From a virus (Duplodnaviria; Heunggongvirae; Uroviricota; Caudoviricetes), in the IMG/VR virus record IMGVR_UViG_2681813205_000011: a DNA stretch of 7,367 nucleotides. One strand, 5' to 3'. Positions 1 through 6,000 of this stretch are shown here, piece by piece. Made by a program: the position numbers. Every line of letters begins with the position of its first letter. The stretch's first letter is position 1.

Positions 1-3000
1 GATGCGGATTTCCGCCTGCGCCATTTCCGCACCAGACTGCATCCGCTCCCGGCTGCTCCTGCCACGGATATCCGCATGAATTTTCCCGCATGACACCCAT
101 TCTTCCGTCATTTCTCCGGCAGCATTACGGGTTAACACCGGCTTCAGAACACTTATCATCTGTGTCAGACGACCTGCAGATATTGCCATTCCTCCCTCCT
201 CATAACACCGTCGGACAACGCAAATCGTAAATCAGCACGGACACAGAAAACGGCAGTTCCCCCTGCACGAGGTCTTCCCGCTCAGCAAGATCCGGATTCC
301 GGTACAGCATCCCGGTCAGTCGCATGGCAGCCCCCTTCATCCGGGTTAATGCCTCGCCCGGGATCAGCTCACCGTCCTCACTAATCACTTTATCCCGGCT
401 GCCCTGAATGTAGGCCAGCAGCACGGCGGTAGCCTGACGAACCTTGTCCATCAGCATGTCATCATCCGCGTCATGGTCAACACGCAGATGTGCCTTGATC
501 TCTTCCAGTGTCAGTAATGCCGTCATTTTCCGCCTCCTGCATCCCGTCCACGTTTTGCAGCCAGGGTCCAGGCTGATGAATGAGCTTCTCCGGGTTTATC
601 ACCGGTCATACTGTTGCAGTGCCACAGCGAGCCCCCCCACGTCACCGTATCGCCGGGGTGGTAGGTTTCACCGGCTCTGAACACACCGCGGTAGAGCATC
701 ACCGGCAGGGAAAATGTTTTTTCCGTACGCTGGCCACTGCTGTGCCGGATCACCACAGAGAACAACCGCTCCCCCGTCATACTGACGTCAATATCCGCCA
801 CCCCGTCAACCAGGCATTCCCATCCCCGCATTCCGTGCGTTTTTTCATACGCCCGCCAGAATCCTCCCAGGTGTGTGGCATACGTGCCCCGGGGAAAGGA
901 TTTTTGATCGTCAATAGCGGGGAGCACTTCCAGAGCCGTGGCATCACGCCCGTCCTGCGGAGCCGGCAGGGCATTCACCGCCTCCAGAACAGCCTTCTGC
1001 AGAACATCGGGATCATAGTCACGACCATCACGCGGAACAGGAATATGGCTTACCGCCTCTTTCACCATCTGTTCAAGCATCGGACGCACATCATCGGGGG
1101 TAATACTTTTGCCGTCCGCCGGTACCGGAATATTCGCAACCGCATCATTCACCGCCTGCTGCAGTACATCCGGATCATAATCACGACCATCACGCGGTAC
1201 CGGAATGGCCCCCACAGCGTCATCCACCATCGCCTGCAGAACCGGACGCACCTCATCCACCGTCACATGCTTCTGTAATACCGCCGACAGGGAAGTCAGT
1301 TTCTCTTCAAACGCTTGTGCCTGCGAGGCCATCTTCCCCTCAAATGTGCGCTGTAAATCCGCCAGCACCGTGGAGAATTCTTCACCCAGCGCACGGATAA
1401 TGGACAGTTCACGCTCTGTCATTTTCGCAGTATCCCCCTGAACATCGCCTTCACCGCATCACGCTCTGTTTCGCTTATGGCCTTATTACCGTCAGACGCG
1501 CCCTCCTGGCGTGTGCCTGACGACGTTTTCCCGGAAGACGCGAACGGATCCTCACGGGCATCACGACGGGACAGCGCCTCCAGACTGTAGTTCTGCTGCT
1601 GAAGATACAGTGCATCACCGCCGGCAAGGGGCGGCAGGTTCTCACGTTTACGGGCCTCATTGGGCGTGAGAAGCGTATTTTTCACCGATTCACCCAGCGT
1701 TTTCATGCGACGTTCGCTGTCCATTCTCAGCAGCGTGGTGACGTCAAACTCCGTGCTCTCGTTTTCCCCTGTTTCCAGCGCCTCATCCAGTAACAGCTCA
1801 ATGGACTCAATCAGCGTCTGCAGACACTGGGAATAATACTGCTGCTCCAGCGCCTCCACGTTGTCACTGGAAGGCGGCTGGCCAACGCCAATCTTGTAGG
1901 CCGGGACACGGAACACCGAACAGACAATTTCAGCCGTCATCTTCAGTTGTTCCACCGTCTGCGCATCCACCGGTGAAAACGTCGTGGGGTTATATTTCGC
2001 CCCGTTGCTCAGGATCGCCGTTTTCCCCGCATTTTCGCCGGTATACCCGCTGTCCCAGTTGCTCTTCAGTTTTTTCGCATTTTCTTCCGTTATACTGCCG
2101 GGGATCTCAATCACCCCGGACGGCCTGCCGCCATTTCTGAAAAAAGACGTCGAATTTTCCTGAATATGATGCCCCTGCGTGGCCGCCAGCCCGGCGACAT
2201 ACACCGGCGGCAATCCTATAAGCGGATGAAAAAAACAGTTAAACCGGTCGTGGATCACTTCCCGGGCAGGCACCGTCACCGCCTCCGTGATCCCGCAGTT
2301 CCGGTCCGGCGTGATGCGGTAGAACACCTCGCCGTCATCCGCCACCAGAGGTTCAACCCGGCTCCAGTCCAGAATACGCAGTTCTTTGATCTGCCCCCGG
2401 GGGTTGCGGATTTTCAGCACCACCGTATTGCCGTGACGCAATTTGGAATTCAGCCACAGTTCAAAAAACTGGATGCGATTCTGCTGCGCATTAGGACGAC
2501 GACAGAGACGGGCAGTATCTCCCTGCCGCTTTTCCCGGCGTATTCCCTGTACATCAGTCTGCATCAGGCGAAGCCGCATTTTGGCGATATCCTGGGATAT
2601 CAGCGAAATGCATGAAAACACCGCGTGAAAGGACAAAACGGTTTCCGGATCGGCTTTCACACCCTGCTGCCAGGCACCGGCAAAAGGCTCAGCCCCCGCC
2701 TGAAACAGGGACCGCCAGCCCACTTCTCTTACGTCACGTCCTGATTTCTGGTTTTTTCGGGTTCGCCGCAAAAGGTTCCACATTCGCCATGCTCCGCATC
2801 ACGTTTCTTTTTCTGACCTGCCGGACGTCGCACCGTGATGTACTCCGCCTTTCCCAGGCGAACCAGCACCTCCGCACACGGCTGTGCCACATCACGGATA
2901 TCCCCGGCCCGGGCATCATGCGTGCCCTGCAGATATCGGATCTTTGCCATAACCTGTTACGGGAGGCGCACGCCTCCCGTCCTCCTTATCAGACTCAGCC

Positions 3001-6000
3001 GCCGGACGCACTGCCGTAGTTCACTCCGGTGATCACCGCCACCGCCACACCGCCGTCATCAGCCAGATAAATATCCGGGGCATTCACCAGCACCAGCTGG
3101 TCACCCACGTACTGGGAGACAATCACCGGCAGCCCCTGGAAGGAGCCACCCAGCAGGGTCATGTCCGGGTATTCCTTCTGACCCAGCGCATTTTTACGCA
3201 TGGACAGTGCCAGGGCATTGGTGCTGGACATCAGCCAGACCGCACCGGTGGGCTGCAGGTTTGCTGCCACAAACTGTCCAAACGCCGCCTCTGCATCCGC
3301 ATCCGGGTTACCGGTTGATGCCGTGCCCTTCACATCATGGGTGATGGACGCCGGGGAGACATCTGCCACTGCGGCTTTTTTCGGGTCCACAAAGTCTGTA
3401 TCCAGACGCGCCACCACCGCTTCCGCCAGCGCATTACGGACCAGTGCATCAGCAGCCGGACTGGAAAAACGGATCAATTCTTCCGTCAGTACCGCAATGG
3501 CCGACACTTTCGCATGACTGAAGGTGATGGATTCAAAATCAAACTTCGTCAGGGGTCTGGCCTTACCCTCACCCACCCAGCCGGCAGCACCACCGGACAC
3601 CTGGGCATGCACGCGGATATTGAACGGCACCTGACGAAGTGCAGGGATCCCGCCCTGACCAAATCGCCCGATAATGGTCTGCGGACGCAGGTAATCAATA
3701 AAGTCCTGCGCATATTCCTGGTATTCAGACAGGCTGCCTGCCCACTGCGGGTCCGTGGTGGTCCCTGCCCCCACCGCCGATTTCAGGACATGATGCAGAC
3801 GGCTGTCATCCGGATACTGACGACGGGCCACTTCCAGGGCTTCAGAGCGGACACCTTTAGCCGCGGCCAGTGATTTGGCAAAGCGGGCGAAACCAATCCC
3901 CTTCTCCAGTTTCTGCTCAACACGGATCACCGGCGCTGAAGCCACCGTGGCCACATTCCCGTTACCGGCCTGTTTCACCGGCTGTGCCGTGGCGGCCTTA
4001 CTGGTTTCCAGTTCACGCAGACGCTTCAGGTGCGCATCCACCTGACGGATTTCCGCTGCGGTGTTGTCGTAGTGCTCTTCCTCTTCCACATCCAGTGTGC
4101 GGCCTTCCTCTGCGGCTTTGTTCATGATCTCCTCAAGGGAGGCTGCCAGCGCCGCACGCTTGTTTTCAAAACTTTTAATCTGTTCACCAGTATTCATTGC
4201 TGACTTTTCCTTATGAAAAGAGGTTATTGACTGTGCCGAAGCGCCGGCAGAAGATGCGATTTTCACCACCGGTTTCCGGTTGCCGGACGCGGCAGAAAAC
4301 GGGCGGTCGAAATATTTAATGGTCCGGATGGTGCATTCCGCATTCGCGGGCACGGTGACGGCAGACACCTCCATCAGTTCCCAGCGCAGAAAATGCAGTC
4401 CGCCTCCGTCCAGAAAGGTGTATTCATGGGGACGGAAGCCCACGGACAGCCCCCTGACCAGCCCGGTCTTAATGGCCGCCCAGACCTCATCCAGCCGGGC
4501 AGCCAGTTGCGACGGCATATCCGGTACGGGCTTCACCAGTGTTGCCGTGATTTCCAGCCCTTCGCTGACCCGGCGCACCGTACACTGCCCCACCGGGCGG
4601 GAATGGTCATGCTGCCAGAGAAACGGTATCGCACTGCCAAACTCCGCGCCCTCCGGCTCCAGGATGTCACCATCCCGATCCGGAGAAGGCGTTGACGCAA
4701 TCCCGGTGATCACCCGTTCATCCTCACTGAAGGATTTCACCGTCAGCAGGGAACAGGCCCGTTTAAGAGTCACATCAGCCTCCTGAAAATAAAAAAACCG
4801 CCGGAGCGGTTCGTGATGGTTACAGTGTGAACAGGGTTATATGAAAAAAACCGCATATTCTTTCTTTTTCGGCTCCGGATTCAGGGACATCAGGGACACC
4901 GCATTGAAGAGCGCCATCAGCGGGTCAATTTTTCCCCGTCCGCTGGCCTGTTTGGTGATAAGAATGGCGTTACCTTTAGGCTCCACCCGGGCATTACCGA
5001 CACACCAGGCCATCAGGGGCTGATCACCGTGAATCAGCACCCCTTCAGCCAGTTTGCGCTCGGTGGTTTTGATGGCCCCGCCCAGCTTCCAGCCCTGGCT
5101 TATCCCCACCACACTCTCATCGGGGATCCCGGCTTCCGCCAGTGAATCCAGAATCTGCCCCACACCTGACGGGTCAATACCGATATGATCCAGTAACTCA
5201 GCCTCATGAATACGACGCACATACTCCGCCACTTCCGCCGTGTCATCCCCGACCCGACGGACAATCGTCATGTCTCCACAGGCCACAAAATCCTGAAACC
5301 GGGATGCCTCACTCTTCCGTCTGACCACCGCGGTTTCATGCGCCCAGGCATGGCCCCAGCCCAGCCATTCGCGGGTCTCCCGGTCACGCCCAGTCACATA
5401 CATCCCCAGCAGATCATCCAGCCCTCCGCCGTCAATCCCCACCGTCACCACATCAGCACGACGCAGGATATCGTCCAGGCTGATACAACGGCCCTGCTCT
5501 TCCCAGAAATCAGCCCCCGCCCAGCGGTCAGAGCGCAGGGCAAGACCAATTTCCACATTGGCGTGTTTTGACATGAACCCCCGGAATGTCTCTTCACCGG
5601 CTTCCCGGGCTTTACGGTACTCCCGGTACAGAAAGGCCTCATCCACTGAATAGCCGAGATTCGGATTGACCATGGCGAGGTTTTCCATCAGCAGGTTAGC
5701 CCCGCTTTCCACCATTTCAGGAGGGTGTTCAAATATCACCGGCAGAAAGTGCGGATCATGAATTTTGCCGTCACGGACATCCCGGGCATACTGCAGTTTC
5801 TGTCTGAACACCCCGGCGGGCGGTTCATTCGACTGGGTGGTCGTATACACCACAAACCCTTCCGGACGGGAGGCAAGCCCGCCGATGGCTTCACGTAGCA
5901 TGTCTTCCGCCTTGTACTGCTTGCCAAACAGCCACAGTTCATCAATCAGTGTCCCCACGGACTTGATACCGGACACCGTATTCGGATCGGCTGCCACCAC

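Follow-up and report, generated by a model that had tools for sequence, protein, structure and literature searches.

The window analysed here, a stretch of 7,367 bp, carries the head gene of an EHEC lambdoid prophage of the Stx-phage type. A single open reading frame (ORF) of 592 aa plus stop codon (2995..4773, minus strand) encodes an S78 prohead protease, a linker, a delta domain and an HK97-fold capsid domain. We consider it likely that this gene represents a nested gene pair, from which a protease–capsid fusion and a capsid-only protein would be made that co-assemble before the protease removes itself, and that the copy in the window is probably defective.

Architecture of the fused gene

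All features described in the following lie on the minus strand. The ORF starts with a GTG codon (4773..4771), and the Shine-Dalgarno (SD) sequence for the long product, AGGAGG (4779..4784), is located 5 nt 5' of it. The S78 (HK97 gp4-like) prohead serine protease domain comprises aa 1–143 (4345..4773), as indicated by Pfam family PF04586, invariant alignment columns and an AF2 model. It is followed by an Ala/Ser/Lys-rich linker of varying length (aa 144–192, 4198..4344; gappy columns 157–192), which is predicted to be disordered. The linker region contains the internal SD sequence TAAGGA (4208..4213), and after a 10-nt spacer comes the in-frame ATG of Met193 (4195..4197), the proposed start of a capsid-only product consisting of delta domain and capsid protein. 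Thus, the AAGGA that the sequence-only reading had placed about 10 nt before this ATG is indeed there. The delta (scaffold-like) domain spans aa 193–283 (3925..4197), with two long helices and a subsequent disordered segment according to AF2 and the profile alignment. The HK97-fold capsid body, recognised by Pfam, AF2 and Foldseek, occupies aa 284–592 in window numbering (2998..3924) and is incomplete.

That protease and capsid protein reside in one 592-aa ORF, as had been proposed, is confirmed by Pfam matches to both families: Peptidase_S78 (PF04586) at aa 48–151 with 34.5 bits (cut-off 21) and Phage_capsid at aa 386–572 with 43.5 bits (cut-off 24.2). H55 and S110 of the protease domain are invariant across 38 diverse homologues and present in the window; by analogy with HK97 gp4 they may be the catalytic pair.

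For structural predictions we used a 645-aa homologue and a diverse alignment of 38 sequences (mean pLDDT 76.5), as a shallow alignment of sequences that are 72–77% identical left the capsid domain unusable (mean pLDDT 44). In the AF2 model the protease strands lie at residues 4–139 (pLDDT about 85), the linker 144–191 is disordered (pLDDT below 40), two delta helices extend over 195–223 and 229–261 (pLDDT about 89), and the capsid body covers 293–635 (pLDDT 80–94). For the capsid body, Foldseek gave matches to the Bxb1, D3 and HK97 capsid proteins (E down to 3e-14, probability 1.0). A single-protein sequence search of solved structures gave one marginal match; a profile search performed better and aligned profile positions 198–262, i.e. 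the delta domain, to residues 4–68 of 9gyi_B. This chain is a major head protein of 385 aa, and Foldseek labels it as the capsid structure of cf-PICI EcCI2. In the model Met193 marks the start of the delta domain, two residues ahead of the first delta helix, which agrees with the earlier placement of the internal ATG at the delta boundary.

Met193 matches the capsid start of split-gene relatives

In some relatives protease and capsid protein are encoded by separate genes. Burkholderia phage vB_SBP39 (PV072743) shares with the window the order terS, terL, protease, capsid gene, small ORF, portal and connector, and Met1 of its capsid protein aligns to Met193. Its junction TTTCAATAAGGATTCCTTACGCATG parallels the window junction TTTCATAAGGAAAAGTCAGCAATG: the TAAGGA-N10-ATG arrangement at the capsid start is identical. 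The proteins are about 40% identical. In vB_SBP39, however, the two genes are split: TAAGGA supplies the TAA stop codon of the protease, and the capsid gene is read in the +1 frame. This use of the TAA within TAAGGA as protease stop codon recurs among the split-gene relatives, and small indels interconvert split and fused forms. No motif supporting programmed frameshifting was seen at the junction of the split relatives. At 12 further split genomic loci the capsid gene begins at an ATG that coincides with the aligned position or lies no more than two codons away. Likewise, of six cluster representatives that consist of the capsid protein only, three have their first residue at column 193 and two others begin 2 and 4 residues before it. 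From the alignments, Met193 is equivalent to the capsid start of split-gene relatives, which share the TAAGGA-N10-ATG arrangement.

The internal start signals are conserved in fused genes

Judged from the window by itself, the internal SD does not stand out. At −6.2 kcal/mol it ranks 9th among 46 in-frame ATG/GTG/TTG codons, and with this moderate strength and the 10-nt spacer it was dropped as stand-alone evidence. Met217 is preceded by a stronger motif, GAGGAG, but this is spaced too closely. The 50-nt stretch around the ATG of Met193 has the lowest GC content of 103 windows across the ORF (0.34 vs a mean of 0.60).

The main evidence comes from the comparison of homologues. In an alignment of 142 fused sequences, each representing a cluster at 50% identity, 111 have Met at column 193, 10 have Val and one has Leu, and the surrounding linker is gappy. 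For analysis at the DNA level, 66 fused loci from gamma-, alpha- and beta-proteobacteria were assembled. An SD duplex energy of −5 kcal/mol or stronger was found at the internal site in 85% of them, compared with 17% of 2137 other in-frame ATG/GTG codons (Mann-Whitney p=3e-25; since the loci are related by descent, this and the following p-values overstate independence). Synonymous diversity is lowered around the site (1st–9th percentile of windows). The pattern has exceptions: in three fused loci no start codon lies 3–4 codons or less from the aligned position, and the SD is weak in a few (e.g. L051 and L055 at −0.9). Altogether, internal in-frame initiation signals are found at the domain boundary and are kept among relatives, and judged by sequence comparison the evidence for an internal start goes far beyond chance. 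The expectation that homologues would share the context of the internal start holds for the ATG, the SD, the AT-rich unstructured surroundings and the SD-favouring codons, which are all kept at 40–50% identity.

Could these signals be mere leftovers of an ancestral split arrangement? In that case the full-length fusion would be the sole product, and every subunit would carry a self-cleaving protease. The long product must be made, because no stop codon separates the domains, and the SD at the upstream start is strong. Because small indels convert split genes into fused ones and back, a recently fused gene would still be expected to carry relic signals. Space would not forbid such a polyprotein either, since, by our rough estimate, about 415 protease domains would fit into a T=7 procapsid; the concern over a 1:1 protease:capsid stoichiometry, which the sequence-only reading expected of a fusion unless something compensates, is not physically compelling. 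However, an SD and an ATG that are not under selection should decay, yet both are kept at 40–50% identity across three proteobacterial classes. Moreover, the Gly within the SD is encoded in all 15 Enterobacterales loci by GGA, a codon that accounts for only 8.9% of the Gly codons elsewhere in these genes, and in 97% of 63 loci the mRNA is predicted to be locally less structured at this site. On balance, we regard a polyprotein as the only product as improbable.

A second possibility is that selection acts on the protein only, with Met and a Lys/Glu-Gly motif serving as delta helix cap and flexible or cleavable linker, and the SD-like DNA arising as a by-product. K-E-G and K-G peptides are necessarily purine-rich in DNA, and synonymous resampling of the same peptide still averages −5.9 kcal/mol. 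GC content is lower around the site in 98% of loci, but the Lys/Asn-rich linker, which lowers GC by its composition alone, is a partial confounder here. Per-locus synonymous tests are individually weak (p<=0.05 in only 5 of 63). Nevertheless, the SDs actually seen are consistently stronger than the peptide would demand (mean −7.66 vs −5.86; Wilcoxon p=1.6e-9), and the AGGA/GGAG core stays while the peptide before Met varies (KKGN, NKGK, PEEGD, PKEGT, HKEKSA). The invariant GGA codon mentioned above, the use of GTG for Val at the site in all five genomic loci with Val, and the independent capsid genes that begin exactly at the Met193 position are likewise at odds with a purely structural role. 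Such a protein-level constraint is thus very unlikely to be the whole cause.

The fusion is common, the deletion is not

The protease–capsid fusion itself is not new; it is common and has long been annotated. The 645-aa form of the gene occurs in 93 records of Stx phages and related phages, and the annotation "major head protein/prohead protease" already exists in Stx phages such as BP-4795; 2851 and Lys8385Vzw also carry the fused gene. Phage phi330, which carries the fused 645-aa form, was isolated as a siphovirus (PMC12502783). The earlier implication that the fusion is an oddity does not stand, as 1252 of 5426 complete E. coli genomes contain the fused gene, and so do most of the closest clusters. 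The notion that it is a meaningless frameshift lesion of a defective prophage or an assembly error draws on the capsid-gene deletion, the two 54-aa repeats absent from the neighbouring 299-aa gene, several length variants in E. coli and the fact that the window is an entire 7367-bp draft contig, but it is refuted for the fusion itself and deserves practically no credence, because inducible and plaque-forming phages normally carry the fused 645-aa form (phi330, BP-4795, 2851, Lys8385Vzw), complete E. coli genomes contain the gene at about 2850 sites, and 142 of the best 150 cluster representatives (50%-identity clusters) across Proteobacteria are fused; only the 159-bp deletion is a lesion.

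With respect to the earlier interpretation of the ORF, the fusion was confirmed and the internal start supported by comparison, but the loss of 53 aa relative to the normal 645-aa form had been missed. This loss is caused by a 159-bp in-frame deletion near the 3' end, with the junction at 3030..3055 between short direct repeats GGCGGYGTGGCNGTG. The absent residues are AVDMSREASLEMQSEPGGDSTTPSPVELVSMFQTGSVAIRAERWINWRRRRTA. They contain the strands 585–587, 604–606 and 612–625 of the AF2 model and both of the motifs that are best conserved in the family, VSM[FW]QTNS and RAER[WFY]INW. The window protein covers only positions 38–228 of the 280-position PF05065 profile, whereas the long form covers 38–279. 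Accordingly, the window copy does not have a complete HK97 fold, as three to four beta strands of the conserved core are lost. It is a minority variant, and since conserved capsid-core residues are gone, it is probably a defective copy within a decaying or variant prophage. It is probably unable to build heads, and given the deletion it may yield no functional capsid at all. Several further length variants in E. coli range from 580 to 605 aa. The 299-aa gene next door lacks two 54-aa repeats.

A model for nested protease and capsid production

Based on the split-gene starts and the conserved signals, it is reasonable to propose that two products are made, the full fusion and a capsid-only protein from Met193, as the sequence-only reading had suggested. 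Ribosomes that initiate at the upstream GTG would synthesise the full protease–delta–capsid protein, and ribosomes that initiate at the internal TAAGGA-N10-ATG on the same late mRNA would make the delta–capsid protein alone as the bulk building block. A few long molecules would join the procapsid via their capsid and delta parts and thereby bring the protease inside the shell, where it would remove the delta domains, the linker and itself. We infer both products, their ratio, the co-assembly and the self-removal. Autocatalytic removal of the protease, previously considered as an alternative to the internal start, is an expected later step and not a rival, because S78 proteases digest delta domains and themselves.

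Probably, the protease–capsid protein would be rare and the capsid-only protein abundant. No sigma-70-like promoter was found inside the ORF, so that the short product would need internal translation initiation. A weak upstream start that holds the long product down does not account for the ratio: this start is ATG in 62 of the 66 fused loci, mostly with good SDs, and the GTG is specific to the EHEC lineage. As the upstream start is usually strong (ATG and SD), the sequence leaves an excess of the short product unexplained.

Extending the model, we lean towards the view that all widespread proteobacterial fusions are two-product nested genes, in which the long product is a minor capsomer subunit that brings a set number of proteases into the procapsid; lineages would switch between covalent delivery and the non-covalent split arrangement when a single nucleotide shifts the frame, and the capsid start would be kept throughout. 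We found nothing specific in the literature on an internal start in protease–capsid fusions or on virion proteomics of these siphoviral Stx phages; the mass-spectrometry peptide maps in the phi330 paper are for podoviruses only (PMC12502783). The family includes clinically important Shiga-toxin phages. If the model is true, the annotation of one 645-aa "major capsid protein" is incomplete and the real major capsid protein product has been missed in thousands of genomes. The protease-to-capsid ratio would then be a simple, mutable translational parameter, and actinophage and archaeal fusions may be nested in the same way.

Comparison with known systems

Phage assembly poses the problem of how to bring a few protease molecules into a shell of hundreds of capsid subunits. 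HK97 has one gene for the protease and another for the capsid protein, and a targeting tail directs the protease without a covalent link. The gene studied here shares with HK97 gp4 and gp5 the protease family (PF04586) and the capsid fold, and with gp5 the scaffold role of an N-terminal helical delta domain, which the protease removes in HK97 and would remove here. Unlike in HK97, both proteins share one ORF, which retains the capsid start inside, and the protease–capsid gene is located between terL and portal.

Lambda and the herpesviruses have solved the problem by a protease–scaffold fusion plus a nested scaffold gene. For lambda C/Nu3, Shaw and Murialdo reportedly found in 1980 that an internal in-frame start in the protease ORF yields the scaffold alone from the same mRNA, and Mu I/Z is nested in the same manner. 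As in C/Nu3, a long ORF here opens with a head protease and contains a proposed in-frame internal start. In lambda, however, the internal start gives a free scaffold, a separate gene encodes the capsid protein E, and the protease belongs to a family other than S78, whereas here the internal product would comprise the delta domain and the capsid protein. With UL26/UL26.5 of herpesviruses it shares the covalent fusion of the protease to an assembly protein for co-incorporation; the shorter in-frame herpesvirus product is made in roughly 10-fold excess (PMC11565193). Herpesviruses employ a separate internal transcript and promoter, in contrast to the internal SD and ATG without a detected internal promoter here, and their carrier is a free scaffold instead of the capsid protein itself. 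Three-part protease–scaffold–capsid fusions have been described and annotated in other lineages (bioRxiv 10.1101/2020.01.10.891226; PMC6563490). We liken them to the present gene by description, and the relevant passages of these two sources do not mention an internal start. The ORF thus has the N-terminal protease and C-terminal assembly protein that characterise the C/Nu3 and UL26/UL26.5 type, and its family suggests a third form of this arrangement, in which the protease would ride on the capsid protein and the bulk of the capsid would come from the internal start.

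Head module and fusion gene

The window spans an entire draft contig of 7367 bp. Its minus strand encodes a phage head module, comprising terS (6495-7058), terL (4837-6498), the fusion gene, a 73-aa ORF (2729-2950), portal (1419-2783), a 299-aa repeat protein (523-1422) and a gp6-like head-tail connector (200-526). The module (1419-7058) has an unusual order, as the fusion gene is placed between terL and portal, versus after portal in HK97. The sequence-only reading had assigned a prohead protease fused to a capsid protein to a single ORF at 2995-4773 (minus strand), and all its coordinates and sequence features of this 592-codon ORF proved correct. 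Pfam places Peptidase_S78 at residues 48-151 and Phage_capsid at residues 386-572. The start codon is a GTG (4773-4771), and an AGGAGG ends 5 nt before it; the upstream start is usually an ATG with a good Shine-Dalgarno site (SD), the GTG being peculiar to the EHEC lineage. The proposed internal start, Met193, is indeed an in-frame ATG (4197-4195), and the SD-like motif noted upstream is TAAGGA (4213-4208) with a 10-nt spacer. When the window sequence is taken alone, this SD is ordinary. A search for a sigma-70-like promoter inside the fusion ORF yielded none.

Directly after the stop codon of the fusion gene lies a 9-bp GC-rich hairpin (2959-2980, minus strand; MFE of the 61-nt stretch -23.1 kcal/mol, z -2.7), flanked by a AAGGAGGA motif on one side and by the ATG of the 73-aa ORF on the other. 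No SD was found within 20 nt of this ATG. The hairpin could draw the SD and the ATG close to each other, as in T4 gene 38 with its split ribosome-binding site; alternatively, its role may be no more than mRNA stabilisation. The portal gene starts inside the 73-aa ORF, the two sharing 55 nt. The terL stop codon and the fusion gene SD are 63 nt apart, and this gap contains a terminator-like hairpin followed by a T-run (GAACCGCTCCGGCGGTTT TTTTATTTTC; 4795-4812, minus strand); the count of terminator-like sites in the region is not above that in shuffled sequence. The 3' part of terS contains a two-copy 27-bp tandem repeat (6562-6615, 77% match). The 299-aa ORF directly 3' of portal shares an ATGA overlap with it (1422-1419), and in complete genomes PGAP annotates both as one 'frameshifted' portal pseudogene. 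The C-terminus of the 299-aa ORF is weakly CBM_5_12-like, and the ORF holds one copy of a 54-aa (162-bp) repeat (VPRDGRDYDPxVLxxAVNDAVANIPxPADGKSxTPDDVRPMLEQMVKEAVSHIP) that occurs three times in relatives of 407 and 405 aa. The lower copy number could reflect real repeat variation or repeat collapse in short-read assembly.

Domain architecture

The fusion protein has a protease-linker-delta-capsid architecture, with homology to S78 proteases and HK97-fold capsid proteins. An AlphaFold model of the 645-aa long form, computed from an alignment of 38 diverse homologues (mean pLDDT 76.5), consists of a beta-rich protease domain (residues 4-139, pLDDT ~85), a disordered linker (144-191, pLDDT <40), two long helices (195-223 and 229-261, pLDDT ~89), a disordered stretch (264-283) and the capsid body (293-635, pLDDT 80-94). 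H55 and S110 are invariant in the 38 homologues, and by analogy with HK97 gp4 we take them to be the likely catalytic pair. In Foldseek, the capsid body matches the capsid proteins of Bxb1, D3, HK97, T5, GTA and others with probability 1.0. Family profile positions 198-262, i.e. the helical region, align to chain 9gyi_B (residues 4-68); this 385-aa chain is a major head protein, for which Foldseek gives the name cf-PICI EcCI2 capsid structure. Met193 had been placed at the beginning of the delta domain, and the model agrees: since the first helix starts at residue 195, Met193 lies two residues ahead of it.

Conservation of the proposed internal start

The sequence-only reading had raised the possibility that a shorter, capsid-only product starts at Met193. 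In fused relatives, column counts and SD energies revealed that both the start codon and the SD are conserved inside the fused ORF. Together with the codon-level, structural and diversity signals below, this speaks for selection acting to keep the internal start. Column 193 holds Met in 111, Val in 10 and Leu in one of 142 fused representatives, and the adjoining linker columns are gappy and variable. Most fused genomic loci have an ATG at the aligned codon or at most 3 codons away, and five have a GTG; three loci lack any start codon in the 3-4 codons next to the aligned position and instead have an ATG 6-8 codons upstream. The internal start is preceded by AAGGA, AAAGGA, AAGGAGG or GAGGAGG at a distance of about 6-10 nt. 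Among 66 fused loci, the SD duplex energy at this junction is -5 kcal/mol or stronger in 85% and -8 kcal/mol or stronger in 36%, versus 17% and 1% of the control in-frame ATG/GTG codons of the same genes (n=2137; Mann-Whitney p=3e-25, inflated because the loci are related). The junction SD is the best of all internal candidates in 27 of the 66 genes.

When the upstream peptide was recoded with synonymous codons, weighted by each gene's own codon usage, the mean SD energy was -5.86, versus the stronger -7.66 observed (Wilcoxon p=1.6e-9, again inflated by relatedness); single loci are rarely significant alone. In Enterobacterales, 15 of 15 loci use GGA as the Gly codon within the SD, a codon that otherwise serves for only 8.9% of the Gly residues in these genes. 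Of 63 loci, 97% have less predicted structure in a 50-nt stretch around the start than across the remaining ORF (mean z +1.6), and 98% have a lower GC there (mean z -2.7); the low GC is due in part to a linker rich in Lys and Asn. In the window copy, the GC content of this region is 0.34 versus 0.60, the lowest of 103 windows, and the MFE is -6.9 versus -14.0 kcal/mol. Synonymous diversity around the site is reduced to the 1st-9th percentile of windows in 19 Enterobacterales genes.

Fused and split relatives

Met193 is equivalent to the capsid start of relatives with separate protease and capsid genes. The Burkholderia phage vB_SBP39 has the same gene order with the two genes split, and its capsid Met1 aligns to Met193 (junction TTTCAATAAGGATTCCTTACGCATG versus TTTCATAAGGAAAAGTCAGCAATG in the window). 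TAAGGA-N10-ATG is identical in both. The TAA of this motif is the protease stop codon in the Burkholderia phage; it is out of frame in E. coli, so that the protease reads through into the capsid frame. The shared head-module order extends to the small ORF that separates the capsid gene from portal.

An exhaustive HMMER search retrieved 12567 relatives. The best 150 representatives of their 50%-identity clusters comprise 142 fused and 6 capsid-only proteins, a ranking biased towards fused proteins because the query itself is fused. Three of the 6 capsid-only proteins begin at the Met193 column; in two others the first residue lies 2 and 4 residues before it. The 80 genomic loci compared come from gamma-, alpha- and betaproteobacteria and include about 66 fused and 12 split cases. 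Where the genes are split, the protease reading frame always differs from that of the capsid gene, and its stop codon lies anywhere between overlapping the capsid ATG by 4 nt and preceding it by about 100 nt.

Probable nested genes and alternative explanations

A nested-gene reading of the fusion is well supported by these comparisons. One late mRNA would be translated into two proteins, protease-delta-capsid (long) and delta-capsid (short). As the minority subunit, the long form would co-assemble with its protease facing inward beside the delta domains, and after assembly the protease would cut off the delta domains, the linker and itself. It is also possible that the fusion is a polyprotein only and that the internal start signals are relics, but this model does not easily explain why those signals are conserved among deeply diverged genes, and it leaves the codon-level evidence hard to account for. 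Constraint at the protein level alone fails as an explanation: the peptide varies while the SD core persists, the rare GGA is always chosen, and independent genes begin at exactly the Met193 position.

The prevalence of the fusion in viable phages refutes the idea that it is itself a lesion. The fusion gene was matched in 1252 of 5426 complete E. coli genomes (95-99% identity, up to 7 copies per genome) and in 93 phage records, among them Stx1a-, Stx2a- and Stx2c-converting phages, BP-4795, 2851, YYZ-2008, JLK-2012, Lys8385Vzw and phi330. Several of these records carry the annotation "putative major head protein/prohead protease", and phi330, whose virion proteomics data are deposited as PRIDE PXD061229, was isolated as a plaque-forming siphovirus (PMC12502783). 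Given this plaque-forming phage and the phage matches, the fusion is a normal feature of viable phages and already in databases.

A deletion in the window copy

The sole lesion is a 159-bp deletion. A 1938-bp gene encoding 645 aa is present in the best E. coli matches and in each of the 60 phage records listed, and homologues of 644-648 aa occur in Salmonella, Enterobacter, Klebsiella, Serratia and others. In the window copy an in-frame stretch of 159 bp is missing, and short direct repeats GGCGGYGTGGCNGTG border the gap. The 53 missing residues (AVDMSREASLEMQSEPGGDSTTPSPVELVSMFQTGSVAIRAERWINWRRRRTA) belong to the capsid core: the family's two most conserved motifs, which the locus search picked as its patterns, fall within them, and in the AlphaFold model of the long form these residues make up strands 585-587, 604-606 and 612-625 and the end of strand 568-581. 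The long form covers positions 38-279 of the 280 in the Pfam Phage_capsid profile, and coverage of the window form ends at 228. We infer that no complete HK97 domain can form in the window copy. The gene has 2974 occurrences in complete E. coli genomes and the missing segment 2854; therefore, about 4% of the copies lack it. As the same 1779-bp form is found in at least 7 complete genomes, the deletion is not just an assembly error. Further E. coli variants of the fusion protein have 580, 586, 600, 602 and 605 aa (P0004-P0008), which suggests that in-frame deletions arose repeatedly and independently in EHEC prophages, where copies are numerous.

At long-form residues 609-618 (L001 7825-7854), a stretch absent from the window copy, the sequence in most homologues is QTNSVAxRAE. 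Its N611 and E618 are nearly invariant; in the EHEC lineage, position 611 is G (QTGSVA). The N611-E618 spacing of 7 equals that of the crosslink Asn (N356) and the catalytic Glu (E363) of HK97. By this analogy, the fusion family may form chainmail crosslinks that were lost in the EHEC lineage.

Comparison with known systems

S78-capsid fusions are annotated in phage records of Stx phages, and two reports describe them in thaumarchaeal proviruses (PMC6563490) and in actinobacteriophage clusters AU, AM, BI, DJ and CC (bioRxiv 10.1101/2020.01.10.891226). No description of a conserved internal start within protease-capsid fusions was found in the literature searched, which covers subscription work, including key HK97 papers, only in part. 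As annotations and papers cover the fusions and none was found on the internal start, the fusion itself is already known and the nested-gene reading, drawn from sequence comparison, would be the new part. Lambda C/Nu3 are the classical nested protease/scaffold genes. Herpesvirus UL26/UL26.5 are likewise nested protease and scaffold genes, the short form being about ten-fold more abundant (PMC11565193).
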